NCBI RefSeq assembly: GCF_000026545.1
Contig: NC_011601.1
Direction: 5' to 3' (one strand)
DNA: 64,000 nt
DNA from: Escherichia coli O127:H6 str. E2348/69
Lineage (GTDB): Bacteria; Pseudomonadota; Gammaproteobacteria; Enterobacterales; Enterobacteriaceae
Below, piece after piece: positions 19,970 through 61,603 of the stretch. The notes beneath the pieces were generated by a model. That model was given only the letters and a program-made list of their open reading frames with translations, was not told the DNA's origin and did not search any database. Position 1 is the first letter of the stretch. Each line of letters begins with the position of its first letter. The position numbers and the translations under genes were made by a program.

Positions 19970-19983
19970 CCACCTTCTTATTC
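19970..19983. repeat. attL core: 14-bp direct repeat CACCTTCTTATTCA (prophage left junction)
   Basis: Identical 14-mer recurs at 60768-60781; bacterial potB-3'-end-like sequence (…aag aag gtg gaa ctc gaa tga = NKKVELE*) lies on the potC side. Confidence 0.75.
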
Positions 19984-20128
19984 ATAAGGCGGGACACTTT
20001 CAGGATTTTGAATTTATTCAATTTTTTCCTTTCTCCAAAATCTCTCCAAAACGTTTCCCCAAAACTAGGCCACGCATTTTACAACACTTTTTTCCTGAGA
20101 TGGTGACGGATATTCCATATGGTGTTTA

Positions 20129-21247
20129 TCAAATAACCAACTTAACCCATTCCTGACCTCGAGTATCGTTATAGCGATCGGTGGTTGCCTGGACTTTATG
20201 TCCTAGTAATGTTTTTGTATCAATACCCTGTGCACGGTACAGCCGTTCTGATAGAGAGCGTTGTTCATGAAATGTTGGCGGAGTTTTTCCTGCTGGTGGA
20301 ATTATCCCAGCCAGATCCCGTGCTTTGGCAAAGTAGTCGCTCAGGTTGTCTTTACTCATCGGCTTCGGTTGTTTCTGGTGCCGACTATGGATTAGATATG
20401 GACTTAATATTCTGTCTCGGCACCCATCAATAACTTCTTTTAACGTTATCCCAATGGCATCACAGCGTAGTGTAAGCGGTAACGCCAGACGCATTCCGGT
20501 TTTTCCCTGGGTGATATGCAAGTGTTCGTTCCACACATCTGAAAAACGCATGTGGCAAATGTCATCACGGCGCTGACCAGTAACAATCGCAAGAAGCATT
20601 GCGTTACGGATAAAGTGTTTTTCAGGCGTTGCATTGTAAATTTTTTGCCAGTCTTCCATGGTGAGCCTGGCTCTGGTTACTTTAGGGATCGGTTTACGGG
20701 TAGCCTCCGGAGGATTCCATCCAGGAGGAACTTCCCCTGCATGCTGTGCTTCTTTATAAATATCAACCCATAATCCACGATTTACTCTCGCTGTGCTGAC
20801 CATGTCTTTATCCAGCCACTCATCCAGTATTAATGCAAAGTCTCTTACTTCCAGTTCTTTCAATGGGTGGTTTCCCAGACGGGAAACCAGGTATGCAGCC
20901 ATTCGGGTTTTTTCTTTGTGAGTTGTAGCTGCAATATCTCCATTTTTCAGTCGCGTGTCCTGTATTTTCAGATATCGATCAACCCATGCCTTTAATCTGA
21001 TACCCTGACGTTTTGTTGCTGACGGACTTTCATCAATTTTGCGCATGAAATATTCAGCTTCTGCTGCAGCTATTCGCTGATTGGCTGTGGAAGCGATTTT
21101 TTCTGCCTTACCTTTGTCTGTTCCGAGTCCGTGAAATTTTCCAGTCACAGGATTTTTATACTGGTAGTAAACTCTGCCAGTTCTGCGATCAAACTTTTCG
21201 TAAAGACCGGCTACGTCAGTGCTGTTTTTTCGTGGCCTCGGTGACAT
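20129..21247 (-). CDS. int: Phage integrase, lambda Int family tyrosine recombinase
   Basis: 372 aa; catalytic region with conserved R...H..R...Y context (…FHEQRSLSERLY…LLGHKVQATTDRYNDTRGQEW) resembling lambda Int. Confidence 0.9.
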   Translation of the reverse strand: MSPRPRKNSTDVAGLYEKFDRRTGRVYYQYKNPVTGKFHGLGTDKGKAEKIASTANQRIAAAEAEYFMRKIDESPSATKRQGIRLKAWVDRYLKIQDTRLKNGDIAATTHKEKTRMAAYLVSRLGNHPLKELEVRDFALILDEWLDKDMVSTARVNRGLWVDIYKEAQHAGEVPPGWNPPEATRKPIPKVTRARLTMEDWQKIYNATPEKHFIRNAMLLAIVTGQRRDDICHMRFSDVWNEHLHITQGKTGMRLALPLTLRCDAIGITLKEVIDGCRDRILSPYLIHSRHQKQPKPMSKDNLSDYFAKARDLAGIIPPAGKTPPTFHEQRSLSERLYRAQGIDTKTLLGHKVQATTDRYNDTRGQEWVKLVI

Positions 21248-21494
21248 GAGTTAAAATCTCCTTCAGTGCATCATCATCGCCAGTATGAATTTCCGGCGCA
21301 ATTCCCGTTTCACCAGGCCCAACAAATACTGCTCGGCGATCTATCAGCCAACGCCCACGAATTTTTTGTGGTCTTGGAACGATGTATCCTAGTTTTCCGT
21401 ATTTCACCAGGGTAGTGTTTGTTATTGGGAGACTGAACCGTTTTGGTTTCCACTCGTCGAGCGTTATCAGGTACTGTTCGCTCATGGCTATCAC
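21216..21494 (-). CDS. xis: Excisionase-like protein
   Basis: Small basic ORF immediately upstream of and overlapping int, typical xis position; start codon uncertain (21494 or 21485). Confidence 0.6.
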   Translation of the reverse strand: MIAMSEQYLITLDEWKPKRFSLPITNTTLVKYGKLGYIVPRPQKIRGRWLIDRRAVFVGPGETGIAPEIHTGDDDALKEILTHVTEATKKQH

Positions 21495-21546
21495 TCCGGA
21501 ACGCGCCAGTTGCAGAATATCAACGACAACTGGCGACGGTTGAACA

Positions 21547-24018
21547 TTAAAAATCAGCCTGATTCGGGATCAGTTTTTGCCAGATAGCTGAAACGTATTT
21601 TGCCTGGTGACGAGCGTCATCAAGTGCATTATGGCGCTCACCTTCGAATGGAATAGCCGTTCTGGCATCGAAGTCTATGGCTTTCCCCAGCTCAACGATT
21701 GTGCGTACATCGCGATCGTTGTAGTAACGCCACGGGCAGGGGATCCCCTGCCGTTCGTATGAACGGCGCAAAATCGTGTTGTCGAAGTTGGCTCCATTTC
21801 CCCAAACCTGAACAAAAAATTCACCGGAGTTTTCGTCGATAAATTCCCGCAATTGTAACAGTGCATCATCTAACGGGATTTCATCGGTCATAATGGCAGA
21901 TTGCGCTTCGCGTGATTGCTTAAGCCACCATTTAATGGTGTCCCGATCAATGACTCCGCCAGCAGTTTCCAGATCGATAGTCTTACTAAATTCCGGTCCC
22001 ATATCTCCGGTTTGCGGATCGAAAAATATTGCACCTATTGAGATGATCGGGGCATCAGGATTTTTTCCCATGGTTTCAAGGTCGATCATTAGATGGTCAC
22101 ACGTCCTGCTGGTGGATGTGATTTCGTGATGACCGTTCACCTTAATTGAGTGATCTGCCGTCTCGCCAGTCTCATTATCGCTATTGTGATGCTGATTGCC
22201 GCCAGTGTTCTCCTTGTGTGGATGCTCAGCGCCTTCCATTTCCTCCGGATCATCTTCCTGAACTTCAACCTGATACTCTTCATCGAATGTTTCCTGGTAT
22301 GTTGCGTCGCCCATCACCGCACCACAATCAGGGCAGTTGCCGCCGCCGGTCTGACCGCAGGCGGTGCAGACTTTTTCCACTTCCTGTTGCACTACTGGTT
22401 CAGGTAGTTTCGTTTCTGGCTCGTTTTGTTGCGTATTTGGGCTGTTTTGTTCCGCTTTCTGGTCGTTCTGTTCCGTTTCTTGCTGGTTCTGGTTCACAGA
22501 ATCGCGGGTTTCAATCCCCTTCACCCATTTCGGATCATTCGGATCGCTAATCCCTGCAACAAATTCACCACGTGATACTGCAAGCAGTTCATCGGCGTCA
22601 GGCTGGCTGATATTGGCTGCCTGCATAATTTTGTTTACTTCGTCAGCGGTAACTTTTACCGGCCCTGGTTGTGCGGTCGTGTCAGATGCACCAGTATTTT
22701 GTTGTGAACCTGAGTATGTACCGTTTTTGCGGGCGAAATATTCTTCTTTCGTGATTTCAGTAGCCCCTGCAGCCAGTGCCTTATCCAGACCAGAAAGTTT
22801 GTTTGCGCGACCGTATTTTTCGCTATCCTTGTCGGTGAAGAGGAAGTAGAACGGCCCTTCACGCTCTACAGATGGTTCGACTTCCACTTTGCATTCGGTT
22901 TTTTCGTTGTCCGGAATTGCCGTTTCCACTGCATCAGTTTCTGGTACTGGCGACGAGAGAGTATCAGTTGCGCTCTGATTTGTTCCTTCATCTTCAAACA
23001 CGCCCTTTGTAGTCAGGTATTCAGTAATGTATTTGTTCAGTGCCACAGGGTCTTTGTGAATGTCGATCGGACGTTCACGGACAAGGCCAAAAATAGTCTG
23101 GCGGTCGTAGCGAAGGGCATCAGGCTGTTTGCGCATTGATGCCGAGATACGCTTCCAGTCTTCGCGGTAGTTGTCGATAACTTCATTTTTTGCCCAGCGA
23201 TGGATGCTGCCGTCAATGTTTCCGGCATCCACATCACCAGGCCAGAGAGCGTAGGCCAGTTCGTCATCCAGTGTTTTCCATGTCTGCTTGTATTCGCGAT
23301 GAGTGGCAGCAATGACCGGGCTGATTTTTCCTGTTGAATTTTCAGTGTTCTGTTGATTGGCTCTGGCGCGGGCGAGATCAACAACAGACGTGTATTTTCC
23401 GGTTTCCTTGCGTTCACCTTCGCGACGTTTTTTCCAGATGCGCATCTCTGCCTGAATTTCGGGCCATTTGGCACCAGGCTTACATTTATGCTTAACCCAC
23501 CCGATGGCATGCAGCTTAAGCTCCGGATACATGGCGTTAACTTCTGGCATTTTCATCAACGCTTCAACGATATGTCCGTCGAATGTTGCCATGTCTTCCT
23601 GCAACAATTCCTGTGCGCTAATCACCATATCAACGGTGATGTTTTCACATGTGTCGAACTTAACCATGACAGCGTTCTGTACTTCAGGGGCCAGCTTGTC
23701 AAAAGTGACGTTCATCGGATCGGATTCAGTCTCAACCGGGACAAAAGAAGCAGAATCCTCATCCCAGCGGTTTTCCTGCATATATTCAGCATCCCATGAA
23801 TCGAGGGCAGGGCGGGGTATGCCAGGTTTATCCTCGCAGACAATAAATTTATAAGCGCAGTCCTGAGCAGCCGGATAATGTTCCAGGAATTGCCAGTGAA
23901 ATTTTGCTCGAGCACGGCGTTCGTCGCCAGCTTCAATGGCTGTGGCTACAGCCACAGCGCCTTCTTCCCTTGTTGCCAGTTCGTCAGGAATAGCGGCGCA
24001 AATAAAGACTTTACTCAT
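21547..24018 (-). CDS. RecE-like protein with C-terminal DEDDh-type 3'-5' exonuclease domain
   Basis: Segment LLAVSRGEFVAGISDPNDPKWVKGIETRDSVNQNQ resembles RecE (exonuclease VIII) as recalled; acidic linker; C-terminal DLETMG...NGANFD...HNALDDARH DnaQ-like motifs. Confidence 0.7.
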   Translation of the reverse strand: MSKVFICAAIPDELATREEGAVAVATAIEAGDERRARAKFHWQFLEHYPAAQDCAYKFIVCEDKPGIPRPALDSWDAEYMQENRWDEDSASFVPVETESDPMNVTFDKLAPEVQNAVMVKFDTCENITVDMVISAQELLQEDMATFDGHIVEALMKMPEVNAMYPELKLHAIGWVKHKCKPGAKWPEIQAEMRIWKKRREGERKETGKYTSVVDLARARANQQNTENSTGKISPVIAATHREYKQTWKTLDDELAYALWPGDVDAGNIDGSIHRWAKNEVIDNYREDWKRISASMRKQPDALRYDRQTIFGLVRERPIDIHKDPVALNKYITEYLTTKGVFEDEGTNQSATDTLSSPVPETDAVETAIPDNEKTECKVEVEPSVEREGPFYFLFTDKDSEKYGRANKLSGLDKALAAGATEITKEEYFARKNGTYSGSQQNTGASDTTAQPGPVKVTADEVNKIMQAANISQPDADELLAVSRGEFVAGISDPNDPKWVKGIETRDSVNQNQQETEQNDQKAEQNSPNTQQNEPETKLPEPVVQQEVEKVCTACGQTGGGNCPDCGAVMGDATYQETFDEEYQVEVQEDDPEEMEGAEHPHKENTGGNQHHNSDNETGETADHSIKVNGHHEITSTSRTCDHLMIDLETMGKNPDAPIISIGAIFFDPQTGDMGPEFSKTIDLETAGGVIDRDTIKWWLKQSREAQSAIMTDEIPLDDALLQLREFIDENSGEFFVQVWGNGANFDNTILRRSYERQGIPCPWRYYNDRDVRTIVELGKAIDFDARTAIPFEGERHNALDDARHQAKYVSAIWQKLIPNQADF

Positions 24019-25312
24019 TTGTTTTAACCTCATGACAGATTTAAGGATGAACAAATCCCTGCCATTGCTGGCATATAAGAATGAAACCGGATATTTATTA
24101 CGGAACTGTTTTAAAGACCTGCCGGGATTTCGATATTATCCTGGTGAATAACTTTATCGACCGGGTAACAGTTACCGGGAATTTTCTGTTCGGTTGCTGC
24201 AGTCATACACTACTGCATTGTCCTGTGAACACTGACTGCAATATCAACTGGCTCTCCGGAAACAAGAAAAACTGTCAGAACAAGCACAAATGCTGAATTC
24301 ATTGTGCACATCCTTTTGGCATCAGACGTAAACGAGCCAGCATTGAAACAATGCATATTTTATTTAATAGCTCCCGTTCTTGTTTTCTCTTGTTAATGGC
24401 ATCTTCAGTAAATACTGGGTTACTGATAGTGACACCAATTTCAAAACAACCTTCAGACGTATTAACGTTTGGTAATAACGTTTTCATTATCGCGTCCTCA
24501 ACAATGAATTTTGTGATGCAGTGCCTGGTGCCTCCAGGTGACGTTAACCAGTTAACAATTAACGCCGGATACAGAGAATCCACCCATAACACTGTTTTTG
24601 GTTTTAACTGTTCCGCGTGCGCTCAGCCGCATTCACCACATCACAAAATTCACTTTAAAAAGGGCGGCAGAGCAGTCACGGAGTAAAACTGATACCGCCA
24701 AACGTCACCAGAAAATTGATAACAGAGGGCGTTGCAGCGGGGTTGTCACTTAAGCGTATGGTCAACCTGACAACCCGGTGTCCTCAACGGGGGAAGGAAT
24801 AACCCCGCCATACTTACCGCCGCGCCATTTCGCGGATTGCCACAACCGGAAGCGCACGGTCGACGAAAATTTAACGACAGGCTATCTATGAACCAGCTAC
24901 CTCGCCGTGCGCTTTCGCGTTATGGTCTGACTTTTCAGGGAAATATCCTTTCAGTAAACTGTCAGTGCCGGATGCTCACCCGTGTCCGGCGCACGCACTC
25001 CACCTCATCCGTGGAGAACTCCTTAATTACCAACCTTAGCTTCGTTGGTTAGCTATTAACGCGGGTATGTAATCATTCTGGCAATGCTTAATGTCGCTGC
25101 TTTTTCCAGATTAGTGATATCCTGCTCCAGAGCGGACAGATTTTCAGCCTGCTTAGCCCTGGCTTCATTGGCCCATTTCAGATCCTGCGCTGCATTAATT
25201 TTCTGGCGCATCCACTCATAAAGTTCATCATCGGTATAGTCTGGCGCGATGATGACGGGTTCTCGTTTCTGCATACTGATTCCTCGCGGTGCTGTTTCGC
25301 TTATCAGCCGTT

Positions 25313-25682
25313 AGATTTTGCCGAACTGGAAAGTGCCTGTTTAAATTCGCTGAAGCTGAGAGCTTCTTCGCCTTCGGCAAGACCTTCGAAGTATTCTTCG
25401 TAAGCCTTTTCCATGATTGTGTCGAAATCCATATCACCCACCTGAATTTCTTTCCAGCCAGCGACGCGCTCCAGATTCGGTTTTAAACGTTTTGCTTTTG
25501 GTATACGTCATCGCGGTGAACGTACCGTCCTGGTTGGGGAACACGCCACATACCAGAGATTCGCTGTTGCCAAGATCGATAGTATCCATGTTGACCTCAT
25601 TTCCCCTTAACGCCGGGGTAGCGGAACTGTTTGCTGAGAACACCGTGCGGTGTCTTGATGGATCGTAATTTAGTTTTCTCAT
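25313..25682 (-). pseudogene. Phage early-region ORF apparently split by a frameshift
   Basis: Two adjacent minus-strand reading frames (25434-25682 and one ending near 25313) read coherently only if a frameshift occurs near 25490-25510. Confidence 0.4.
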
Positions 25683-25780
25683 GAATATTGATCAAGTGCT
25701 TTTGATGATAAAACTCAATATTTAATGCAAAATAAAGCCAATACATTGAAATGTAAGGCTTTAAAATTTGTGAAGGGGGG

Positions 25781-26188
25781 TTATTGATGTTTGTTACGTT
25801 TGCGAGCTTCTAGTAGCTCGGTGAATAGGCGATTAAAATTCTCAACGCGGGCACGGAGTTCGCTGATTTGTGCTTGCTGCTCTGATTTTGGAAGTGCGCG
25901 ATACAATCGCAACATCTCCAACTCATCTTCCGATAAGTCTAAGGCGCTGTTGAGTGCAACTGGTGGATCTGGTGTTTTATCCTCGTCACCAAACAGTATC
26001 CAAGTTGGTGAACATTGCAATACCTCAGCCAGGCGATGCAAATTTTGCCCGCGCGGGGCTGTATGGTCGCTTTCCCATAGTGAAATTGATGAGCCAGATA
26101 CGCCAGCAGCTTTGCTTAAATCGTTTTGACTTAAACCAACCTGTTTGCGTCTTTCTCTAATTCGTTGACCTAAAGTTTTCTCGTTCAT
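25781..26188 (-). CDS. Prophage repressor, XRE-family HTH (RacR/CI-like), no S24 peptidase domain
   Basis: 135 aa; N-terminal HTH (LGQRIRERRKQVGLSQNDLSKAAGVSGSSISLWE); divergent from the cro-like gene. Confidence 0.8.
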   Translation of the reverse strand: MNEKTLGQRIRERRKQVGLSQNDLSKAAGVSGSSISLWESDHTAPRGQNLHRLAEVLQCSPTWILFGDEDKTPDPPVALNSALDLSEDELEMLRLYRALPKSEQQAQISELRARVENFNRLFTELLEARKRNKHQ

Positions 26189-26209
26189 ATTTAGATATCT
26201 TAATAACCC

Positions 26210-26239
26210 TTGACTTGAGATTCCTTGAGTGATTACTAT
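26210..26239 (+). promoter_or_regulatory. Candidate rightward early promoter/operator region (PR-like)
   Basis: TTGACT (26210-26215), 18-bp spacer, TACTAT (26234-26239); repeated CCTTGA operator-like motifs; RBS ggagg before the ATG at 26266. Confidence 0.4.
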
Positions 26240-26265
26240 TGAGAAAACTCAACTTTGGAGGGGTG

Positions 26266-26493
26266 ATGTTTAAATCAGACGTAATTAATTTTTATGGGAC
26301 GAAAGCCAAAGTAGCGAAAGCTGCTGGTGTTGATCCATCTGCTGTTTCTCAATGGGGGGAACTGGTTCCTGAAGGTCGCGCGATGCGCCTGCAAGAGGCA
26401 TCCGGCGGGGAACTTCAGTACGACCCCAAAGTTTATGACGAATATCGTAAGGCAAAGCGGGCGGGGCGGTTGAACAATGAAAATCACCCCTGA
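26266..26493 (+). CDS. Cro/YdaS-like small DNA-binding protein
   Basis: MFKSDVINFYGTKAKVAKAAGVDPSAVSQWGELVPEG... HTH; first gene rightward of the repressor; the upstream TTG at 26239 lacks an RBS. Confidence 0.7.
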   Translation: MFKSDVINFYGTKAKVAKAAGVDPSAVSQWGELVPEGRAMRLQEASGGELQYDPKVYDEYRKAKRAGRLNNENHP

Positions 26494-27028
26494 ACAGGTT
26501 TGTGAGGCTCTGGATGCCTGGGTATGCCGACCAGGAATGACACAGGAGCAGGCGACGATATTAATCACGGAAGCATTCTGGGCTCTGAAAGAACGCCCGA
26601 ACATCGATGTTCAACGCGTCACGTTTAATGATGGCGAGGTTGATCAACGGGCGCTGTGCGTTAACCGGGTGAAGATATTCGAACGCTGGAAAGCTATCGA
26701 CACCAGGGATAAGCGGAAAAAATTCACGGCGCTGATTCCGGCAATTATGGAGGCTATCCGAATTAGTGATTTCAGGCTGTATCGTGAGATCAGTGATGGA
26801 AAAAGCATTACGTACATGATCGCCGGATTAAACAAAGAATATGGCGATGTGGTGGAGTCCGGGCTGCTTTTTGCGGATCCATCTGTTGTGGAACGTGAGA
26901 CTGACGAGCTTATAGAAAAAGCTATTGCTTTCAAGCATGCGTATCGTCAGCAATATCAATATTACTTTGCAGATAAACAAATGTCTGCCAGGGGTTCGTA
27001 TGAGTATCGATGCACTACGATGGGCTAA
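26477..27028 (+). CDS. YdaT-like protein (CII-position gene)
   Basis: 183 aa; segment ALIPAIMEAIRISDFRLY resembles Rac-prophage YdaT as recalled; follows the cro-like gene as in Rac racR-ydaS-ydaT. Confidence 0.55.
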   Translation: MKITPEQVCEALDAWVCRPGMTQEQATILITEAFWALKERPNIDVQRVTFNDGEVDQRALCVNRVKIFERWKAIDTRDKRKKFTALIPAIMEAIRISDFRLYREISDGKSITYMIAGLNKEYGDVVESGLLFADPSVVERETDELIEKAIAFKHAYRQQYQYYFADKQMSARGSYEYRCTTMG

Positions 27029-28040
27029 AAAGGTGAAAACCGGCAGTTCATCCAGTAAGTCTGTATTGACCTGGCTTGCTGATATGTGCGGTGCCGATTT
27101 GTGTGCATACCCGTCTGTATCTGCACTGGCAGAAGTAACGGAACTGAACAAAAAGACTGTGCAGGACAGCTTACGACACCTGATGGAGATTGGGTTAATT
27201 GTTGATACCGGTGAGAGAAAAGGCAGAACAAAGCAAATTGTGGTGTACCGACTTATCGGTGTAGAAGAAAGTGTTGCCGAGCCTGAATACACCCAAAAAC
27301 GGGAGTCTTTAAAGGTGGGTAAAATCGGTGCTGTTAATAAAAACAGTACCGAAAATGGTTATGTTTCAGCACAAAACAGACCCAAAAACGGAACTCTTAG
27401 CTGCATGGAAAATAACCAAAGACACCCAAATTTTCCATCAAAGACACCCAAAAACGGATCACGGAACCCAAAGGAACCCAAAGAGCTAAACCCCACACAT
27501 AACGCACGCGAGAGTGCTCCGACCAGTGAGCAGAAAGTTTTGTCGTTACAGGCTGCACCTCCTGTATTCCTGGATGGCCTGAGCGAACCCATCGAAAAAT
27601 TTCCGATGACCGATAGCTGGTATCCGTCACGGGATTTTCGACGACGGGCTGCGTTGTGGGGGATGGCTTTGCCGGAGACAGAATTCACACCTGCTGAACT
27701 TGCCGCCTTCCGGGACTACTGGGCTGCTGAGGGGAAAGTGTTTACGCAGATTCAGTGGGAGCAGAAATTCGCCCGTCACGTAAATCACGTCAGGGCGCAG
27801 GTTAAACCAGTCAGCAAGGGGGTAAACCATGCAGCAGCACCAGGTGACACCGCATCACGGGCAGTTCAGGAAATTCGGGCAGCACGTGAGCAGTGGGAAC
27901 GTGAAAACGGATTTATCAGCGACGGAAACGGCCTGGAAGCTGTGGGAACTCATGGGGGAGGTTTATTCGAACCGCTGGACCCAGAAGAACGGGGCCGCAC
28001 CTTCGAAGCTCTGGATTGCACAGATTGGTGCGATGACTGA
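27000..28040 (+). CDS. Replication initiation protein (O-like / primosomal) with N-terminal winged-helix domain
   Basis: MSIDALRWAKKV...SVSALAEVTELNKKTVQDSLRHLMEIGLIV HTH; immediately upstream of the P-like gene. Confidence 0.55.
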   Translation: MSIDALRWAKKVKTGSSSSKSVLTWLADMCGADLCAYPSVSALAEVTELNKKTVQDSLRHLMEIGLIVDTGERKGRTKQIVVYRLIGVEESVAEPEYTQKRESLKVGKIGAVNKNSTENGYVSAQNRPKNGTLSCMENNQRHPNFPSKTPKNGSRNPKEPKELNPTHNARESAPTSEQKVLSLQAAPPVFLDGLSEPIEKFPMTDSWYPSRDFRRRAALWGMALPETEFTPAELAAFRDYWAAEGKVFTQIQWEQKFARHVNHVRAQVKPVSKGVNHAAAPGDTASRAVQEIRAAREQWERENGFISDGNGLEAVGTHGGGLFEPLDPEERGRTFEALDCTDWCDD

Positions 28041-28494
28041 GCAGAAAATCCGACAGGTCTGCCGCCAGTGCATGGACCGCTGCCGGGCGGGTGAAACATG
28101 GCCTCCGGACCTGGCTGAGTTTGTGGCGCTGATTTCTGAAAGCGGAGCCAATCCATTCGGTCTGACGGTGGATGCCGTGATGGAGGAGTACCGTCGCTGG
28201 CGCAACGAGTCCTGGCGATACGACGGGAGCGATAAATACCCGTGGTCTCAGCCTGTGCTGTATCACATTTGCCTCGAGATGCGTTCAAAGGGGATTGAGC
28301 GGCAGATGACCGAAGGGGAGTTAAAACGGCTTGCAGAACGGCAGCTGACGAAATGGGCAAAGCATGTTAGTAACGGCCTGAGTGTTCCGCCAGTCCGGCG
28401 ACAACTGGCGGCACCCAAACGCCCGTCGGGGCCAACGCCAATTGAGTTGCTGAAACAGGAATATGAACGCCGGAAAGCGGCTGGGCTTGTCTGA
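27952..28494 (+). CDS. Replication protein P-like helicase loader
   Basis: Colinear similarity to lambda P C-terminal half as recalled (YPWS..., ...GELKRLAERQL..., ...KWAKHVSNGLSVPPV); start uncertain (27829, 27952 or 28033). Confidence 0.6.
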   Translation: MGEVYSNRWTQKNGAAPSKLWIAQIGAMTEQKIRQVCRQCMDRCRAGETWPPDLAEFVALISESGANPFGLTVDAVMEEYRRWRNESWRYDGSDKYPWSQPVLYHICLEMRSKGIERQMTEGELKRLAERQLTKWAKHVSNGLSVPPVRRQLAAPKRPSGPTPIELLKQEYERRKAAGLV

Positions 28495-28526: not shown

Positions 28527-28801
28527 ATGGAGACTGTTTTTGACGCACTGAAAGCAATGGGAAAAGCCACATCCATAGAACTTGCTGCGCGCGTGAAGAA
28601 GTGCTGAACGAACTATGGGAACTGAAAAAGGCTGGTTTTGTTGATAAAAGCGCGTACACCTGGCGTGTGGCTGATAACAACGTTCAGCAGGAACAGCCAG
28701 CGCAGGCAGAACTGCCGGAAGAAACCACCACAATGAGTGAAGTTATGCAGCGCATACTGGCATTTTATCAGGGAAATGTTCGATATTTTAGACGTTACTA
28801 G
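28527..28801 (+). pseudogene. Small phage ORF apparently interrupted by frameshift/stop
   Basis: ATG at 28527 gives [26 protein letters not shown] and the sense continues in another frame (ORF 28601-28801). Confidence 0.35.
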
Positions 28802-29240
28802 ATTAAAGAGCATTAGTTCAGATGTGAATTGACATTGTGTGGCACAGGGTTGGGCTAGCGTGGGGGTTTGCTTTGTGTAAGAAACGGATGCTCTGCAAAT
28901 TACTACTAATGCTTAATGTTAGTCTGATCTGCTCCCCGATGATTAATACACCGCTATGTTAGTAATGTCTGTAGATCGCTGTGTGTTGCATCCATCGGTT
29001 GACCCCACAGTCCAAACCAGACTGTCAGCTTTGATTCGATTCTATCTACTCAACCTGTCAGGTAATGTCTGAGCTAATACACAGAGTACGGCTATCGCGA
29101 ACTTTAAGCTAGGTATCTGATACGCACCGTTCACTTGGTCGTACTTCTTGCACTGACTAGCTATCGTGCGCAGTTATTTATAGGTAATCTCCAGTGTATA
29201 ATTTTCCAACTTATGGGAGATTGTAAAACAGGAGGAATAT

Positions 29241-30083
29241 ATGAGGAAAAAATCGTTTGGACGTTGCCCGTTTGATTTCGACGAAGATGTAAAAAAAATA
29301 GCCGCGATAAATAAATATATCCATGCGAAATTTGAGAGGCATAAAAATAAAATAGATAACCTAAAGGGGGTGGAACAAAAATTGATGGTTTTACATTACT
29401 TTAATGTACTGAATGAACTTAGTAATCAGGCTATATTTTCTTTGAGTACCGGAGCCTTTTCAGCATCGGAAGTATTAACTAGAGTTATAATGGAACAGGC
29501 TGCCAATCAATTTTATATAGCAATTGATGATGGAAAAAATGCACAAGCATTACTCAAGGGTAGTAAGAAATTAGTTCATAGTAATGGGAAACGGTGGCTG
29601 GAGTGTTTAAAATCCAAAGAAATGACTAATCCAGCAGCAGATGAAAGGATTCGTATCGGAAAAGAGCTAACTGATATGTTTAATAGATTGTGGCCAAATA
29701 CACCTGAATATCCTGGAACCAAAAAGCTTTTCGAAGTAATTGGCTGGGAAACACACTATCATGCCTATTACGTCCCTCTTTGTGATTCAATACATACATT
29801 CTCTGATGATATGGCAAATATAGTATCTCTATATAATGCAATCCAAAGCGATAAAACTACTGCTATCGAACTCACTCTTGCAGTTAAACAAGAAAATAAA
29901 CGGCTGGCAATTTATAATGTCGTAATTGCTATTGGCCTGCGGTGTGAGGCCTTAGTAAATGTATTTAACTCTTTAGGTTATCGAGATATTATAACTGAAA
30001 TGGCGCCAACAATAGATGCAGTCAACCAGATTATAATTCGATATGATGATTTCGAACATTCCAGAATTTTTTATTGTCAATAA
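29241..30083 (+). CDS. Uncharacterised 280-aa protein in AT-rich accessory island
   Basis: Clean ORF with RBS aggagg 8 nt upstream; visibly AT-rich codon usage; no motif I can assign. Confidence 0.7.
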   Translation: MRKKSFGRCPFDFDEDVKKIAAINKYIHAKFERHKNKIDNLKGVEQKLMVLHYFNVLNELSNQAIFSLSTGAFSASEVLTRVIMEQAANQFYIAIDDGKNAQALLKGSKKLVHSNGKRWLECLKSKEMTNPAADERIRIGKELTDMFNRLWPNTPEYPGTKKLFEVIGWETHYHAYYVPLCDSIHTFSDDMANIVSLYNAIQSDKTTAIELTLAVKQENKRLAIYNVVIAIGLRCEALVNVFNSLGYRDIITEMAPTIDAVNQIIIRYDDFEHSRIFYCQ

Positions 30084-30140
30084 TTAATTGGCAGAATTCG
30101 TACATGCACAACAACTAGTTATAGTTGACCTATTTCGCTC

Positions 30141-30710
30141 TTGAGAGACAACCATACTCAAATCTTCCACATTGCAGGAGATTTGAGTATGAATACGTCA
30201 CCGAGGAACAAAGACAGTATCATAGGCCCAAAAAGACCACTTCAGATATCTCATATCTGGGGGCTCCAAATCCGGCTTGAACTGGAAGGTAAAACGCGTG
30301 ATTTAGCTCGGTTTCAAGCAGAGCTACGGTGCTGCAACTGAAAAACTGGCAGTCCTATCCAATTTGAGATAACCAAAGGGACAAGAGAAGCTGTTTCTGC
30401 ATTGATAAAGCTTGGCAATTTACGCAGTAAAGACTACTTGTTCCGATCTCGGGTCGGTACTAACCAACACATATCAATCCTGCAATATAACCGAATCTTT
30501 CATAGGAGGGAGAAAAGCTTGGTCTCGAAGATTCGCTTTACAGCACACATTCCATGAGAAGAACAAAACCTTGCCTTGTCTGCAAGAAAACTAAGAATCT
30601 CCGGGTGATCCAACTTCCGTTGGGCCATAAGAAAACGGAAAGCACAGTTCGTTATCTGGGTATAGAAGTTGATGATGCATTAGAGATCTCTGAATCGATC
30701 GAAGTCTAAA
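30141..30710 (+). pseudogene. Degraded tyrosine recombinase/integrase
   Basis: Three short frames with recombinase hallmarks: GPKRPLQISHIWGLQIRLELEGKTRDLA (N-terminal) and HSMRRTKPCLV...LPLGHKKTESTVRYLGIEVDDALEISE (box II His/Arg and catalytic Tyr region); interrupted by stops/frameshifts. Confidence 0.6.
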
Positions 30711-31121
30711 GCTGTCAGGGCTGCAGCAGCAGCCCTGTGCCAAGAGCGTACCAATATATGTCTCAAAAAATTGGGCACAGGTCAATATCAATACCAACAA
30801 CTCTGATTGTGCTCATGTGATTTACTCCTGTAGAAAACGCAGACAGTAAAAATATTTCACTGGCTGCTTCAGACAGGGCGTCCATCATATCATTACATAA
30901 CAATAGCGGGGCACGATATCTAGACATGCAGCAACGATGGACATAGAATGAGTACAATCAAAAGCATGTTTAACTACTTTAATTTAAAAATCTTAGAATC
31001 TTAGGTGTAGAGTTCAATACTTAGTTACATACCCTTTTGAAAGCATCACAAATCATAACTATGAGCCTGTTAAAGGCATAGGTATTCTTAATTAAGAGCA
31101 TTTTAATGAGAGAAAAATAAA

Positions 31122-33117: not shown

Positions 33118-33371
33118 CTATGAATTATTATATTGTAAAGTAATCAGGTAAGATATGTTAGACAGTGAGACTATTGCCTTACAGAATTCATTATTCTTAT
33201 GGATCGCCTTTCTGACTGATTTCATATTGGCGGGGTAACGGGAGTTAAGTAGAATGGCTGCGGGTGCTTGAGGCTATCTGTCTCAGGCATGAACACCAAA
33301 GGCAGATAGAGAAAAGCCCCAGTTAACATTACGCGTCCTGCAAGACGCTTAACATTAATCTGAGGCCAATT

Positions 33372-34531: not shown

Positions 34532-34687
34532 ATGAAGCAGCAAAAGGCGATGTTAATCGCCCTGATCGTCATCTGTTTAACCGTCATAGTGACGACACTG
34601 GTAACGAGGAAAGACCTCTGCGAGGTACGAATCCGAACCGGCCAGACGGAGGCCGCTGTCTTCACAGCTTACGAACCTGAGGAGTAA
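34532..34687 (+). CDS. hok: Hok/Gef-family type I toxin
   Basis: MKQQKAMLIALIVICLTVIVTTLVTRKDLCEVRIRTGQTEAAVFTAYEPEE, near-identical in pattern to Hok/Gef peptides as recalled. Confidence 0.9.
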   Translation: MKQQKAMLIALIVICLTVIVTTLVTRKDLCEVRIRTGQTEAAVFTAYEPEE

Positions 34688-53842: not shown

Positions 53843-56800
53843 ATGGGTAAAGGCAGCAGTAAGGGGCATACCCCGCGCGAAGCGAAGGACAACCTGAAAT
53901 CCACGCAGTTGCTGAGTGTGATTGATGCCATCAGCGAAGGGCCGATTGAAGGTCCGGTGGATGGATTAAAAAGCGTGCTGCTGAACAGTACGCCGGTGCT
54001 GGACAGTGAAGGTAATACCAACATCTCCGGTGTCACGGTGGTGTTCCGGGCCGGTGAGCAGGAGCAGACACCGCCGGAGGGATTTGAATCCTCCGGCTCT
54101 GAGACGGTGCTGGGTACGGAAGTGAAATACGACACGCCGATCACCCGCACCATCACGTCGGCAAACATCGATCGTCTGCGCTTTACTTTCGGTGTGCAGG
54201 CACTGGTGGAAACCACCTCAAAGGGGGACCGGAATCCGTCGGAAGTCCGCCTGCTGGTTCAGATACAGCGTAACGGTGGCTGGGTGACGGAAAAAGACAT
54301 CACCATTAAGGGTAAAACCACCTCGCAGTATCTGGCCTCGGTGGTGGTGGATAACCTGCCGCCGCGCCCGTTTAATATCCGGATGCGCAGGATGACGCCG
54401 GACAGCACCACAGACCAGCTGCAGAACAAAACGCTCTGGTCGTCATACACCGAAATCATCGATGTGAAACAGTGCTACCCGAACACGGCACTGGTCGGCG
54501 TGCAGGTGGACTCGGAGCAGTTCGGCAGCCAGCAGGTGAGCCGTAATTATCATCTGCGCGGGCGTATTCTGCAGGTGCCGTCGAACTATAACCCGCAGAC
54601 GCGGCAATACAGCGGTATCTGGGACGGAACGTTTAAGCCAGCATACAGCAACAACATGGCCTGGTGTCTGTGGGATATGCTGACCCATCCGCGCTACGGC
54701 ATGGGGAAACGTCTTGGTGCGGCGGATGTGGACAAATGGGCGCTGTATGTCATCGGCCAGCATTGCGATCAGTCGGTGCCGGACGGTTTTGGCGGCACGG
54801 AGCCGCGCATCACCTGTAATGCGTACCTGACCACACAGCGTAAGGCGTGGGATGTGCTCAGTGATTTCTGCTCTGCGATGCGCTGTATGCCGGTATGGAA
54901 CGGGCAGACGCTGACGTTCGTGCAGGACCGGCCATCGGATAAGGTGTGGACCTATAACCGCAGTAATGTGGTGATGCCGGATGATGGCGCGCCGTTCCGC
55001 TACAGCTTCAGCGCCCTGAAAGACCGCCATAATGCCGTTGAGGTGAACTGGACTGACCCGGATAACGGCTGGGAGACGGCGACAGAGCTTGTTGAAGATA
55101 CGCAGGCCATTCTCCGTTACGGTCGTAACGTCACGAAGATGGATGCCTTTGGCTGTACCAGCCGGGGGCAGGCGCACCGCGCCGGGCTGTGGCTGATTAA
55201 AACAGAACTGCTGGAAACGCAGACCGTGGACTTCAGCGTGGGTGCCGAAGGGCTTCGCCATGTACCGGGCGATGTCATTGAAATCTGCGATGATGACTAT
55301 GCCGGTATCAGCACCGGTGGTCGTGTGCTGGCGGTGAACAGCCAGACCCGGACGCTGACGCTCGACCGTGAAATCACGCTGCCATCCTCCGGTACCACGC
55401 TGATAAGCCTGGTTGACGGAAGTGGCAATCCGGTCAGCGTGGAGGTTCAGTCCGTCACCGACGGCGTGAAGGTAAAAGTGAGCCGTGTTCCTGACGGTGT
55501 TGCTGAATACAGCGTATGGGGGCTGAAGCTGCCGACGCTGCGCCAGCGACTGTTCCGCTGCGTGAGTATCCGTGAGAACGACGACGGCACGTATGCCATC
55601 ACCGCCGTGCAGCATGTGCCGGAAAAAGAGGCCATCGTGGATAACGGGGCGCACTTTGACGGCGAACAGAGTGGCACGGTGAACGGTGTCACGCCGCCAG
55701 CGGTGCAGCACCTGACTGCCGAAGTCACTGCAGACAGCGGGGAGTATCAGGTGCTGGCTCGATGGGACACGCCGAAGGTGGTGAAGGGCGTGAGCTTCCT
55801 GCTCCGTCTGACCGTGACAGCGGATGACGGCAGTGAGCGGCTGGTCAGCACGGCCCGGACGACGGAAACCACATACCGCTTCACGCAACTGGCGCTGGGG
55901 AACTACAGGCTGACGGTCCGGGCGGTAAATGCGTGGGGGCAGCAGGGCGATCCGGCATCGGTATCGTTCCGGATTGCGGCACCGGCAGCGCCTGTCACTA
56001 TTGAACTGATACCAGGGTATTTTCAGATAACAGCGGTCCCGAAACTGGCTGTATATGACCCGACGGTGCAGTTTGAGTTCTGGTTCTCGGAAAAGCGGAT
56101 TATCGATATCAGGCAGGTTGAAACCAGCGCGCGTTATCTTGGTACGGCGCTGTACTGGATAGCCGCCAGTAGCAATATTAAGCCGGGTTATGATTATTAC
56201 TTTTATATCCGCAGCGTGAACACCGTAGGTAAATCGGCATTTGTGGAGGCCGTCGGTCGGGCGAGCGATGATGCGGAAGGTTATCTGAATTTTTATAAAG
56301 GGTTGATCAATAAAACGCATCTCGGCAAGGAACTGCTGGAAAACTTTGAGCTGACGGAAGATAACGCCAGCAAACTGGAGGAGTTTTCGAAAGAGTGGAA
56401 GGACGCTAACGATAAATGGAATGCCATGTGGGGCGTCAAACTTGAGCAGACCAAAGACGGCAAACATTATGTCGCGGGTATTGGCCTCAGCATGGAGGAC
56501 ACGGAGGAAGGCAAGCTGAGCCAGTTTCTGGTTGCCGCTAACCGTATCGCGTTTATTGACCCGGCAAACGGGAATGAAACGCCGATGTTTGTGGCGCAGG
56601 GCAACCAGATATTCATGAATGACGTGTTCCTGAAACGCCTGACGGCCCCCACCATTACCAGCGGTGGCAATCCACCGGCATTTTCCCTGACACCGGACGG
56701 AAAGCTGACTGCTAAAAATGCGGATATCAGTGGCAGTGTGAATGCGAACGCCGGGACGCTCAACAACGTCACGGTAAATGAAAACTGTACGATTAAGGGC

Positions 56801-57256
56801 ATGCTGGAGGCGACTCAGGTCAGAGGTGACTTCGTTAAAGCTGTATCCAAATCATTTCCGAAACAGGCTGGTACGTGGGGTAACACGGAAACACCAAACG
56901 GGACGGTTACAGTCACCATCAGCGATGATCATAACTTTGACCGTCAAATCATTATTCCGCCCATTATCTTTAACGGAATAGCGTATAGCTATCCGGGAAG
57001 TGGTAATAACCCGGGAGGTACAAGTTACACGGGTTATGGTTTTGAAGTTCGCAAAAACGGTGTATTAATCGCATCCAGAGAAACTAAAGGGGCCATTCCC
57101 GGTAGTTACAGTGCAGTTATTGATATGCCTAGTGGTGGTGGTAGCGTCACTCTGGAGTTTAAGATTTTCCAGAAAGGCAATCAGGGGGCAGGCAATATCA
57201 CCGACTGTACGGTGATTGTGACCAAAAAAGCGGCTTCCGGCATCAGTATTCGTTGA
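53843..57256 (+). CDS. J: Host-specificity/tail tip protein gpJ-like
   Basis: 1137 aa, lambda J-like size and position, fibronectin-type repeats. Confidence 0.9.
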
Positions 57257-57275
57257 AATTGTTATAACCCATATA

Positions 57276-57303
57276 AGGGCACCAGAAATGGTGCCTTTTT
57301 TAT
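57276..57303 (+). terminator. Rho-independent terminator downstream of J
   Basis: agggcacc...ggtgcct stem followed by T-run. Confidence 0.75.
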
Positions 57304-57325
57304 TGCAGAAAAGCGAGAGGTAATT

Positions 57326-57925
57326 ATGCGTAAAGTTTGTGCAGCCATTTTGTCCGCAGCCATCTGTCTGTCCGTATCCGGTGCGCCTGCATGGGCGTCT
57401 GAACATCAGTCCACACTGAGCGCGGGGTATCTTCATGCCCGGACGAACGCTCCCGGTAGCGATAATCTTAACGGGATTAACGTGAAATACCGTTATGAAT
57501 TTACGGACACGCTGGGGCTGGTGACGTCATTCAGCTATGCAGGAGACAAGAATCGCCAGCTTACCCGTTACAGCGATACCCGCTGGCATGAAGATTCCGT
57601 GCGTAACCGCTGGTTCAGCGTAATGGCGGGGCCGTCTGTGCGCGTGAATGAATGGTTCAGCGCGTATGCGATGGCGGGTGTGGCTTACAGCCGTGTGTCG
57701 ACTTTCTCCGGGGATTATCTTCGCGTAACTGACAACAAGGGGAAAACGCACGATGTGCTGACCGGAAGTGATGACGGTCGCCACAGCGACACCTCTCTGG
57801 CGTGGGGAGCTGGCGTGCAGTTTAACCCGACCGAATCCGTGGCCATTGATATTGCTTATGAAGGCTCCGGCAGTGGCGACTGGCGCACTGACGGTTTCAT
57901 CGTGGGTGTCGGTTATAAATTCTGA
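57326..57925 (+). CDS. lom: Outer-membrane protein Lom (Ail/Lom family beta-barrel)
   Basis: Signal peptide, beta-barrel pattern ending ...[10 protein letters not shown]; position after J as in lambda. Confidence 0.88.
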
Positions 57926-57951
57926 TTAGCCAGGTAACACAGTGTTATGAC

Positions 57952-57978
57952 AGCCCGCCGGTTCAGGCGGGCTTTTTT
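57952..57978 (+). terminator. Rho-independent terminator downstream of lom
   Basis: gcccgccggttcaggcgggc stem-loop followed by T6. Confidence 0.75.
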
Positions 57979-57983
57979 GTGAG

Positions 57984-59303
57984 GTGAATATGGCAGTAAA
58001 GATTTCAGGTGTACTGAAAGACGGCACAGGAAAACCGGTACAGAACTGCACAATCCAGCTGAAAGCAAAACGTAACAGTACCACGGTGGTGGTGAACACG
58101 GTGGCCTCAGAAAATCCGGATGAAGCCGGGCGTTACAGCATGGATGTTGAGTATGGCCAGTACAGCGTCACCCTGCTGGTTGAAGGTTTTCCTCCTTCGC
58201 ATGCCGGGACCATCACCGTGTATGAAGATTCTCAGCCGGGTACGCTGAATGATTTTCTCGGTGCCATGTCGGAGGATGACGTCCGTCCGGAGGCACTGCG
58301 TCGCTTTGAACAAATGGTGGAAGAGGCAGCGCGTCACGCCGGGGAGGCGAAGAAGAATGCCGGAGAGGCGGAGACGTCAGCGAGGAATGCCGGCATATCA
58401 GCCAGTCAGGCAGAAGAGAGCGCGGCAAATGCTGACACTTCAGCAGGGGAGGCATCGGAGTCAGCCCGGCAGGCGGCAGAAAGTGCAGCCGCTGCAAAGA
58501 AGTCAGAGGAAGCGTCCTCGTCCTCGGCCTCTGAGGCCGCTCAAAAAGCCAGTGAGTCATTACAAAGTGCAGCAGATGCTGAGTTGTCAAAAAAGACGGC
58601 AGAAAGTGCAGCCGGTAATGCAGCCAGGGATGCAACGACCGCAGCAGAAAAAGCCCGGGAGTCAGCAGAAAGCGCACAGTCAGCGGAACAAAGCAGGATA
58701 GCGGCGGAAGACGCCGTAAACCGAATCCCCACCGTGGTGGGACCTCCCGGGCCAAAGGGAGAACCGGGGCCCGCGGGTCCTCAGGGGCCGAAGGGAGATA
58801 AAGGAGAGCGTGGCGACACCGGTCCTGTCGGGGCAACCGGTGAGCGGGGACCGGCAGGTGATGCTGGTCCGGCAGGCCCGCAGGGGCCGAAAGGCGACAG
58901 GGGAGAGCGGGGAGAGACCGGTCTGACGGGAAATGCAGGTCCACAGGGTCCAAAGGGAGATACCGGTGCGGCAGGTCCGGCAGGCCCACAGGGACCGAAA
59001 GGAGAAACAGGTGCGGCTGGCCCGGTGGGGGCAACCGGACCTCAGGGACCAAAGGGCGACCCGGGGGAGACACAAATCCGTTTTCGTCTGGGGCCGGCGA
59101 GCATTATTGAGACAAACAGCAATGGCTGGTTCCCGGGTACAGATGGTGCGCTCATCACCGGACTGACCTTTCTTGACCCCAAAGATGCCACACAGGTTCA
59201 GGGGCTGTTTCAGCATTTGCAGGTCAGGTTTGGTGACGGGCCGTGGCAGGATGTTAAGGGGCTGGATGAAGTGGGCAGTGATACAGGCAGAACAGGAGAA
59301 TGA
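57984..59303 (+). CDS. stf: Side tail fibre protein (Stf-like) with collagen-like Gly-X-Y repeats
   Basis: N-terminus [26 protein letters not shown]... matches lambda Stf; central [26 protein letters not shown]... collagen-like tract. Confidence 0.88.
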
Positions 59304-59304
59304 C

Positions 59305-59574
59305 ATGAACGTACTAAAAAAACTTATGCAGCGTCTGTGCGGGTACGGAAAGCATGATGACCGTGAACACGGGGAGTTACTTACAGCACAACTGCGTCTG
59401 GGGCCGGCAGACATCCTGGAGTCAGATGAGAATGGTATTATTCCGGAGCAGGCCAGGGTAATCACGCAGGTGGTGATACTGGATACAGATAAAAAGCAGA
59501 TACAGTGTGTGGTAAGACCGCTGCAAATCCTGCGTGCTGACGGGACGTGGGAAAATATTGGCGGGATGAAGTAA
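59305..59574 (+). CDS. Hypothetical tail-fibre-associated protein
   Basis: 89-aa ORF starting 2 nt after the stf stop; central segment resembles the Stf C-terminal segment (LRLGPADILESDENG vs [15 protein letters not shown]). Confidence 0.5.
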   Translation: MNVLKKLMQRLCGYGKHDDREHGELLTAQLRLGPADILESDENGIIPEQARVITQVVILDTDKKQIQCVVRPLQILRADGTWENIGGMK

Positions 59575-59590
59575 CCCGACGGGTTCACAA

Positions 59591-59616
59591 AAACCGGAGT
59601 CCGGCTCCGGTTTTTG
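59591..59616 (+). terminator. Rho-independent terminator
   Basis: ccggagtccggctccgg stem-loop followed by T5. Confidence 0.7.
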
Positions 59617-59617
59617 T

Positions 59618-59952
59618 TGTCATGTCCGGTGGATGTTTGTTATGACTCCCTATATTTCCAGACATCTGTTATCACTTAACCCATTACAAGCCCGCTGCCG
59701 CAGATATTCCCGTGGCGAGCGATAACCCAGCGCACTATGCGGATGCCATTCGTTATAATGCTCGAACGCCTCTGCAAGGTTCTTTGCTGCCGTTAACCCG
59801 TCTGGTTTAGGCATGATACTGATGTAGTCACGCTTTATCGTTTTCACGAAGCTCTCTGCTATGCCGTTACTCTCCGGACTCCGCACCGCCGTGTTCTTCG
59901 GTTCAAGCCCCAACATCCGGGCAAACTGCCGTGTTTCATTAGCCCGGTAGCA
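59618..59952 (-). mobile_element. IS2 remnant (3' end of the insD/orfB transposase gene and right end only)
   Basis: Minus-strand translation ...[43 protein letters not shown]...[29 protein letters not shown] equals the IS2 InsD C-terminus as recalled; no upstream part of the IS present. Confidence 0.75.
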
Positions 59953-60507
59953 CGGACCATAACAATTTATAATCTGCTGGCCGGAACTAATGAATTTATT
60001 GGTGAAGGTGACGCATATATTCCGCCTCATACAGGTCTGCCAGCAAACAGTACCGATATTGCACCACCAGATATTCCTGCTGGCTTTGTGGCTGTTTTCA
60101 ACAGTGATGAGGCATCGTGGCATCTCGTTGAAGACCATCGGGGTAAAACGGTTTATGACGTAGCGTCAGGGGACGAGTTATTTATTTCTGAACTCGGTCC
60201 GTTACCGGAAAATGTTACCTGGTTATCGCCGGAAGGGGAGTTTCAGAAGTGGAACGGCACAGCCTGGGTGAAAGATGCAGAAGCAGAAAAACTGTTCCGG
60301 ATCCGGGAGGCGGAAGAAACAAAAAACAACCTGATGCAGGTAGCCAGTGAGCATATTGCGCCACTTCAGGATGCGGTAGATCTGGAAATCGCAACGGAGG
60401 AAGAAAACTCGTTGCTGGAAGCCTGGAAGAAGTATCGGGTGTTGCTGAACCGTGTTGATACATCAACTGCACCTGATATTGAGTGGCCGACTTCACCTGC
60501 AGAGTAA
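59953..60507 (+). pseudogene. tfa: Tail fibre assembly protein (tfa) lacking its first codons and start
   Basis: [87 protein letters not shown]... colinear with lambda Tfa from about residue 10; homology ends abruptly at the IS2 remnant. Confidence 0.8.
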
Positions 60508-60739
60508 TCAACGGCGCAGGGATGATATTTTGTGCTTGAAGTGCCTCCCCGACCATTCAGATAGTCGGGGAGGGGGTATTGGGATTATACGCAATCAGTT
60601 TTAGTAAAAGACCGAAGCTCTCGAAAAATCTTTCTCCAAAACCAGAATGCAATTGATTGATTTTGATAGGATCTATAACGCCGTTACCTTAAACGGCAAA
60701 ACCACTCAAAAACAAACCTAATGTATTGAATATAAAGGA

Positions 60740-61603
60740 TTAATCATCTAATTCGCTCACCTTCTTATTCAGCAGACGAGAAGCGCGCCAGTAAACCAGC
60801 AACATCAGGCCCATTACGATAGTCAGCGTAATGCTGGTGGCTGCACCAAACGGCCAGTCACGAATATTGAGGAACTGTACCTTGATGACGTTACCGATCA
60901 GCAGGTTTTTCGCACCGCCCATCAGGTCGGACACATAGAACAGGCCCATCGCTGGCAGCATCACCAGCAGACATCCGGCAATAATTCCCGGCATCGTTAG
61001 TGGGATAATGATGCGGATAAAGGTCTGCAACTTGCTGGCACCGAGATCGCGCGCCGCCTCAAGCAACGGCTTATCCAGTTTTTCGATACTGGAGTACAGC
61101 GGCATCACCATAAACGGCAGCAGAATGTAAACCAGACCGATAATCACCGCACTAGGCGTGAACATGATGCGAATTGGTGTATCGATAACGCCCAGCCAGA
61201 GCAAAAACTCGTTGAGATAGCCTTTGGTGCTGAGGAAAATTTTCAGCCCGTAAATACGAATCAATGAGTTGGTCCAGAACGGAACAATCAGCAGAAACAG
61301 CAGCAGCGGACGCACCTTGTGTGGCAGCTTCGCCAGAAACCAGGCAAAAGGATAGCCCAGCACCAGGCAGGCGAGGGTGGCGATCAGCGCCATATTCAGC
61401 GAGTGCAATAGCACTTCAAAATAGAGCGGATCGAGCAGACGCGTGTAGTTATCCAGCGTAAAGACCATTTTGACGAAACTGGCGTCGTCGCGGGTCAAAA
61501 AGCTGGTGCCAATGATCATCAGGTTGGGCAGAAAGACAAACAACACAAGCCAACCGACAATAGTGACAATCACTACATTCTGGAACTTACTTGTGTTCTT
61601 CAT
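60740..61603 (-). CDS. potB: Spermidine/putrescine ABC transporter permease PotB (3' end remodelled by prophage junction)
   Basis: 287-aa ORF ...[17 protein letters not shown]; the terminal codons derive from phage-side sequence while the ancestral-type ending NKKVELE* is found next to potC at attL; N-terminal start uncertain. Confidence 0.9.
60768..60781. repeat. attR core: 14-bp direct repeat CACCTTCTTATTCA (prophage right junction)
   Basis: Identical to 19970-19983; lies inside the 3' end of potB. Confidence 0.75.

Follow-up and report, generated by a model that had tools for sequence, protein, structure and literature searches.

The 3'-end of potB, at its boundary with potC in the potABCD operon, is a named integration site for prophages of Escherichia coli. 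Prophages described at this position include the 44 kb Phi-potB (Phi-CFT073-potB) of CFT073 (PMC3573123, PMC4632033), PP_potB in O157:H7 clade 8 (PMC9997748), 'Prophage 5 (potC)' in O157:H7 (PMC10925052) and prophage J of O104:H4, located at potB/potC (PMC3486847). In addition, potC has been reported as an insertion site of Shiga toxin (Stx) phages (PMC8065619), and the Stx2 phages found at potAB-CD all have one integrase type (PMC9453080). Here, a stretch of 64,000 nt from the chromosome of E. coli O127:H6 strain E2348/69 (RefSeq assembly GCF_000026545.1, contig NC_011601.1; referred to as the window) was analysed, in which potC and potB are separated by 40.8 kb bounded by a short direct repeat. 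This interval consists of lambdoid phage DNA, and we consider it almost certain that it represents a lambdoid temperate phage that integrated site-specifically at the 3'-end of potB and later decayed. It is an already known prophage at a known hotspot, and the finding, while supported, is an ordinary one.

Exactly two copies of CACCTTCTTATTCA are present in the window, at positions 19971–19984 and 60758–60771, each of them on the plus strand. Identity is confined to these 14 bp, as the flanking sequences diverge on both sides, and the element between potC and potB is 40,787 bp in length when counted with one copy of the core. An initial annotation of the window, made from the sequence alone, had proposed a prophage at the 3'-end of potB bounded by a 14-bp direct repeat, and while the two exact copies were confirmed, the coordinates it gave (19970–19983 and 60768–60781) were off by 1 and 10 nt, respectively. 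The first copy forms the core of attL (BOP'), where the minus strand encodes NKKV of an orphaned potB tail and includes a Shine-Dalgarno (SD)-like sequence, AAGAAGGTGG, of potC. Read on this strand, the tail is ATG AAT AAG AAG GTG GAA CTC GAA TGA, running from an ATG through NKKVELE to a TGA stop codon that the potC ATG overlaps (ATGA), in agreement with the NKKVELE* (asterisk, stop codon) and adjoining potC start initially described. The same overlap is present in the native, uninterrupted operon, bearing out the view that the insertion lies inside a coupled operon. The second copy forms the core of attR (POB'), where potB ends in NKKVSELDD*, as was confirmed by translation against the uninterrupted ...LLNKKVELE*. 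The lambda-type BOP'/POB' geometry also held, with int adjoining attL and reading towards potC. The attL region was 100% identical to that in NZ_CP059840.2 (enteropathogenic E. coli O127:H6 E2348/69 chromosome).

The empty site, attB, was reconstructed by joining positions 19485–19984 to 60772–61271 (left flank, one core and right flank; 1000 nt). This reconstruct matched uninterrupted potB–potC loci in many genomes, including those of ATCC 11775 and Nissle 1917, with 100% identity over 1000 nt and in one piece, and the uninterrupted site retains the 14-mer core; this is the alignment to a prophage-free locus by which the initial annotation had suggested its claim be checked. In genomes with an empty site, homology to the attR side was found to start at query position 509, which corresponds to window position 60758, the first base of the core. 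The site is uninterrupted in 3800 of 5426 complete E. coli genomes.

The phage form, attP, was sought with a pattern that demanded P-side context, core and P'-side context and was thus unable to match attL, and three IMG/VR viral contigs were matched. The order in contig L008 is tail fibre assembly gene, hairpin, P arm, single core, P' arm, int, xis and exo. An attP reconstruct made from the window (60560–60771 joined to 19985–20130) was collinear with IMG/VR contigs L008 and L009, with a gap-free junction. All four att forms of the Campbell model are documented. A search of a phage collection with the reconstructed attP returned no intact junction and matched only the degraded remains of a P arm in phage cdtI and, in an Stx1a prophage record, an attR end. 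In phage cdtI (NC_009514.1, ~23.70–23.95 kb), which is an inducible cytolethal distending toxin (CDT-I) phage with a different integrase, the degraded potB-type P arm is located just upstream of cdtABC, is without the TTCTCCAAAA-site segment and breaks off within the core, following CACCTTCT; it resembles the relic of a former att end beside toxin cargo. The only full-length GenBank phage matches to int, ON470612 and ON470619, were rejected as a source of attP, being prophage predictions in which potC and potD are still included. In ON470612.1 ('Escherichia phage vB_EcoS-640R1, partial genome'), positions 1–1478 hold the host potC and potD genes, the prediction overrunning attL, and this is not virion DNA.

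The junction comprising potC, attL, int, xis and the start of exo, counted where at least 80% of these segments was matched, was found in 1603 of the 5426 complete genomes, including those of CFT073 and ATCC 25922, with ~99.6% identity, and the right end on the side of the tail fibre assembly gene (tfa) is also common to 913 of the 5426. The E2348/69 prophage carries the integrase type next to potC that defines the group of potB-site prophages, and the 3'-end of potB is among the commonest prophage sites in E. coli, being occupied in ~30% of complete genomes. It resembles Phi-potB of CFT073 in both site and int-xis-exo left end (99.6% DNA identity). However, the E2348/69 copy is distinguished among potB-site prophages by its decay, with a 10.2-kb structural deletion and insertion sequence (IS) elements, and by a rare island carrying a Septu gene pair, and, unlike the Stx phages and the O157 prophage, it carries neither stx nor espK-type effector cargo. 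Effectors are carried in E2348/69 by prophages PP2, PP4 and PP6. The right end and P arm of potB-site prophages vary by lineage, and the prophage in O157:H7 ATCC 43888 shares only 12 bp of the core. In that prophage (locus L003; 761–2651 and 3015–3878), espK and an nleB fragment are found at the right end, and PotB ends in NKKATEIDN*.

The gene beside attL (20129–21247, minus strand) encodes an integrase of 372 amino acids (aa) that was assigned to the lambda-Int family on domain and alignment evidence. Its N-terminus matches the Pfam family Arm-DNA-bind_1, the lambda integrase arm-binding domain (residues 1–64, E = 7e-21), the catalytic part matches Phage_integrase (residues 194–363, E = 4e-18), and residues 26–371 align to lambda Int (PDB 1Z1B; E = 4e-54), with all six catalytic residues aligned and conserved, namely R (vtgqR), K (qgKtg), H..R (tfHeqRs), H (lgHk) and Y (drYnd). 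The start of int is overlapped by an excisionase gene (21216–21485, minus strand), identified from the RefSeq annotation and a match to PHROG phrog_629 (5e-26).

Scanning the whole window for TTCTCCAAAA with one mismatch allowed gave seven matches, four of which lie in one orientation within the ~330 bp of the att arms, where the expectation of ~5.6 matches per 64 kb corresponds to ~0.03. Three tandem TCTCCAAAA-type repeats are present in the P' arm (20031–20065, plus strand), with start-to-start spacing of 11 and 13 nt and at 47–80 bp from the core, while a single TTCTCCAAAA is found in the P arm (60632–60641, plus strand), 117 bp from the core and oriented as in P'. The P-arm motif is kept in three otherwise divergent P arms, and arm motifs are also present in the attP contigs. 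The repeats are candidate arm-type Int sites with a layout like that of lambda P'1–P'3 plus P1/P2. A hairpin with a 13-bp stem (60544–60573; -24.2 kcal/mol, z = -4.9) separates tfa from the P arm. On the potB strand of the lysogen, ~170 nt lie between the new potB stop codon and this hairpin downstream of it, and in attP the hairpin is downstream of int on the far side of the core, where lambda has sib/tI. No U-tract follows the stem.

At the attR junction of the different prophage in ATCC 43888, the sequence is TGCCTTCTTATTCA. Because only the 12 bp CCTTCTTATTCA are common to all junctions compared, strand exchange probably falls within this segment. Integration very probably occurred by Campbell-type, Int-catalysed recombination between phage attP and the attB site in the potB/potC overlap, with the crossover inside the 14-bp segment of identity, 12 bp of which every variant seen has, and this segment is now duplicated as attL and attR. 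A heterobivalent, lambda-type Int probably binds core sites together with the TCTCCAAAA-type arm sites, of which P' has three and P one, and the adjacent Xis would direct excision. The insertion exchanged the last three codons of potB (ELE*) for five phage codons (SELDD*), and any transcription of potCD would have to start inside the prophage, read-through of the int transcript being the most plausible route. The prophage has decayed since, through a ~10.2-kb deletion, three IS insertions and splitting of the tail fibre gene. The outcome is that the known defective prophage of E2348/69 is delimited, with an att core, candidate arm sites and a full in silico set of attB, attP, attL and attR for a common hotspot; the narrowing of the shared crossover segment to 12 bp is a by-product of modest use.

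When compared with phage lambda, the E2348/69 Int is homologous from end to end, including the N-terminal arm-binding domain, and Xis likewise overlaps int upstream. The order tail fibre, attP, int, xis and exo is common to both, as is the BOP'...POB' prophage geometry, and the candidate arm sites are likewise three in tandem in P' with at least one in P. However, the lambda attB is intergenic, between gal and bio, rather than at the 3'-end of potB, the core sequence is also different, lambda has two P-arm copies where one was found here, and the candidate motif here is TCTCCAAAA-like. Insertion within a coding gene with a phage-supplied replacement end is also a feature of e14 and phage 21, which integrate in icd. 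Rac is inserted in the coding sequence of ttcA and provides substitute codons for TtcA (PMC4632033). As in icd and ttcA, the host open reading frame (ORF) at potB stays open with a slightly altered terminus. The potB case differs in that three native codons are swapped for five phage codons, and in that the insertion parts potCD from their promoter and breaks the translational coupling of potB and potC.

The structural region was examined using a 1.4-kb query (52300–53700), which was found to split at ~53000 into two blocks matching separate places in lambda-like and phage-21-like genomes. Relative to phage 21, window positions 52960–52994 correspond to 4577–4611 and positions 53002–53036 to 14827–14861, and at the deletion junction (52999–53001) ~10.2 kb of phage 21 (4617–14825) is gone. 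The genes lost are most of C/Nu3 (protease/scaffold), D, E, FI, FII, Z, U, V, G/GT, H, M, L and most of K. The junction fuses a truncated head protease gene to a truncated K gene, both of which are annotated as partial in RefSeq. Further decay is seen as three IS elements, one IS remnant and a split tail fibre gene, and the complete set of head and tail morphogenesis genes that a functional lambdoid phage has is not present. Because of the ~10.2-kb head and tail deletion, the three IS insertions and the split tail fibre, the prophage is judged from its gene content to be defective and would make no virions on its own. As int, xis and both att cores are intact, excision may still be possible.

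It is possible, if only tentatively so, that the prophage is defective but mobile with help, excising with its own Int and Xis and being packaged via its own cos site and terminase into head and tail proteins supplied by other lambdoid prophages of E2348/69. The prophage has kept int, xis, terminase, portal and replication genes in intact form, structural genes of the phage-21/lambda type are widely shared, and behaviour of this kind is described, in an account of interactions between prophages, for the pool of defective prophages in O157 Sakai (PMC2669165). However, late transcription may be disrupted by the IS insertions that precede the lysis cassette.

The consequences for the potABCD operon differ between its two halves. 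The potB gene (60740–61603, minus strand) takes its last five codons and stop (SELDD*) from the phage P arm and remains open, its product being 287 aa in the lysogen as against 285 aa for the uninterrupted protein, which ends ...LLNKKVELE* in K-12-like genomes. Other P arms end PotB with SEIGD*, or with TEIDN* following a V-to-A change. The potC (19168–19962) and potD (18125–19171) genes, on the minus strand, are now 40.8 kb away from potAB and immediately follow int in the same orientation. While potC keeps its ATG and the SD-like AAGAAGGTGG, which sits inside the core, potCD are cut off from the potA (operon) promoter. A sequence scan, which also took in the surroundings of attR, found no sigma-70-like promoter between int and potC, nor anywhere in 19800–21600, and no terminator-like hairpin between int and potC. 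If potCD are expressed, this is most likely via read-through from int and the early-left operon. A mini-ORF, MNKKVELE*, in which an in-frame ATG derived from the phage begins a reading frame overlapping the potC start, was considered as a coupling device and rejected, since a single base suffices to create it (~1 in 4) and no SD sequence precedes it.

That the integration is adaptive, in the sense that the phage end keeps potB open and potC translatable and couples spermidine uptake to the state of the prophage via int read-through, appears unlikely. Retention of the potC ATG and of the SD-like sequence in the core is consistent with it, as are the shared strand of int and potC with no terminator-like hairpin between them, the addition of exactly five codons and a stop to PotB by each of three divergent P arms, and a PotC protein accession that the lysogen shares with a K-12-like non-lysogen. 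However, the scan of 19800–21600 found no promoter-like site, the phage ATG of MNKKVELE* requires just one base (A) and lacks an SD sequence, the alike five-codon tails are accounted for by common ancestry of the P arms, and published work describes the operon just as disrupted (PMC9453080). It is quite doubtful that potB-type attP sites are tuned to keep the host operon usable, with potCD levels set by prophage transcription, although the idea would fit a core that includes the potC ribosome-binding site, a P arm that always provides a five-codon acidic tail and stop, and the orientation of int with no terminator following. If true, spermidine uptake (PotC and PotD levels) in ~30% of E. coli would be set by prophage transcription and derepressed on induction, and the native potA promoter and PotD autoregulation would no longer govern potCD in those strains.

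An intact inducible phage, able to excise, replicate, package and lyse alone, is highly improbable. The int and xis genes are intact, the att cores are perfect, and the element has lysis, terminase, portal, J and replication genes, but the capsid, connector, tail tube, tape measure, M and L genes and most of K went with the ~10.2 kb missing relative to phage 21, the genes flanking the junction are partial, and the IS insertions, IS remnant and split fibre also argue against this.

Several points weaken single parts of the case for site-specific integration at potB followed by decay. The 14-bp repeat by itself is not statistically significant in a 64-kb window, as 28 pairs of exact direct repeats of at least 14 bp were observed when ~5 were obtained in shuffles and ~7.6 are predicted by theory. 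The attP contigs could in principle stem from tandem lysogens rather than from free phage, and ON470612 and ON470619 give no independent evidence of attP. With no promoter match for potCD, the part of the operon beyond potB may just be inactive. What makes the repeat convincing is its placement exactly at both boundaries between bacterial and phage DNA, together with the attB and attP matches. That the repeat arose by chance, and that the phage genes came by illegitimate recombination, transposition or rearrangement between prophages, finds favour in this excess of repeat pairs over the ~5–8 expected but is as good as eliminated, being refuted by the attB match, in which removal of the DNA between the repeats with one copy restores native potB–potC at 100% and in register, by the start of homology at the first core base, and by the reciprocal attP junction in viral contigs, while 1603 genomes have the identical junction. 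No evidence contradicts integration at potB, and the weak points all lie in steps that we infer, namely the binding of the repeats by Int, the point at which strands are exchanged, read-through into potCD and present competence for excision.

The remaining gene content of the window was taken from the RefSeq annotation, with RNA genes identified using Rfam and tRNAs also using ARAGORN. The left 19 kb is chromosomal backbone (thiK, nagZ, ndh, mfd, lolCDE, nagK and cobB, to potD), and the backbone on the right includes potB, potA and pepT. Beyond xis, the early-left operon includes a gene for a RecE-like 3'-5' exonuclease (21547–24018, minus strand; RefSeq and PHROG). This is followed by an immunity and division-inhibition region of the Qin/Rac type (24299–26493) with ydfD, dicB and ydfC/B/A, which includes the small RNA DicF (24662–24713, minus strand), a dicA-like helix-turn-helix repressor gene (25781–26188, minus strand) and dicC (26266–26493, plus strand). 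Genes for YdaT, an O-like (DnaT-like) protein and replication protein P (26477–28494, plus strand) follow. An IS481-family transposase gene marks an IS insertion (33372–34460, minus strand), beyond which hokD, rem, DUF968, RusA, DUF1133 and DNA methyltransferase genes make up the nin/late-regulator region (34532–39188, plus strand).

Downstream of the methyltransferase gene, two phage tRNA genes are present (39238–39487, plus strand), one with a CAT anticodon that RefSeq annotates as tRNA-Ile and the other tRNA-Arg (TCT). The first (39238–39313) was called tRNA-Met (CAT) by ARAGORN, a mismatch that would be explained by a lysidine-modified CAT anticodon read as Ile. The iraM and SASA esterase genes are found beyond the tRNA genes and before ISEc13, in the RefSeq order. 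ISEc13 (IS4-like) and IS200C are inserted (43265–45234, plus strand; Rfam STnc490 match) upstream of the lysis cassette, which encodes holin, lysozyme RrrD and an Rz-like protein (45394–46531, plus strand). The genes for the small and large terminase subunits, the head-tail joining protein (W) and the portal protein, with ~200 nt from the start of the head protease gene (48572–52999, plus strand), are collinear with phage 21 to its position 4616. The tail-tip and fibre genes beyond the deletion (53001–60507, plus strand) comprise the K remnant, I, J (53843–57256), lom, the split tail fibre gene (57990–59303 and 59305–59574), the IS remnant and tfa (59926–60507).

Matches to Rfam families were obtained for DicF, sok, STnc100, STnc490, IS009 and the two tRNAs. 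The full-length IS009 match (225 bits; 60269–60467) lies wholly inside tfa and is probably due to the family having been seeded with tfa sequence from prophages rather than to a separate RNA gene. The sok match (33262–33428) is ~1.1 kb from the hokD coding sequence (34532–34687), with the IS481-family gene lying between them and overlapping the end of sok, and the hok/sok locus may have been split by the IS481-family element.

A low-GC (35–39%) cargo island is inserted after a truncated DUF1627 gene (28730–33370, plus strand). It carries, all on the plus strand, a DUF5677 gene (29241–30083), a frameshifted tyrosine recombinase gene (30189–30709) and genes for a Septu PtuA ATPase (31122–32495; PADLOC 1.9e-165, residues 2–455) and a PtuB HNH nuclease (32482–33117; PADLOC 1.1e-83, residues 7–212). 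The ptuA and ptuB genes are adjacent and overlap, as is required of a Septu gene pair, and both models of Septu (PtuA/PtuB) are matched; here, the pair is predicted cargo inside the prophage and stands apart from integration. This island arrangement was found in 16 of the 5426 genomes. In other lambdoid prophages, the slot between P/DUF1627 and hokD is occupied by paa, ORF6N, DUF4209 or QueH genes, and the Septu island is a routine case of defence cargo in a variable slot of a prophage.

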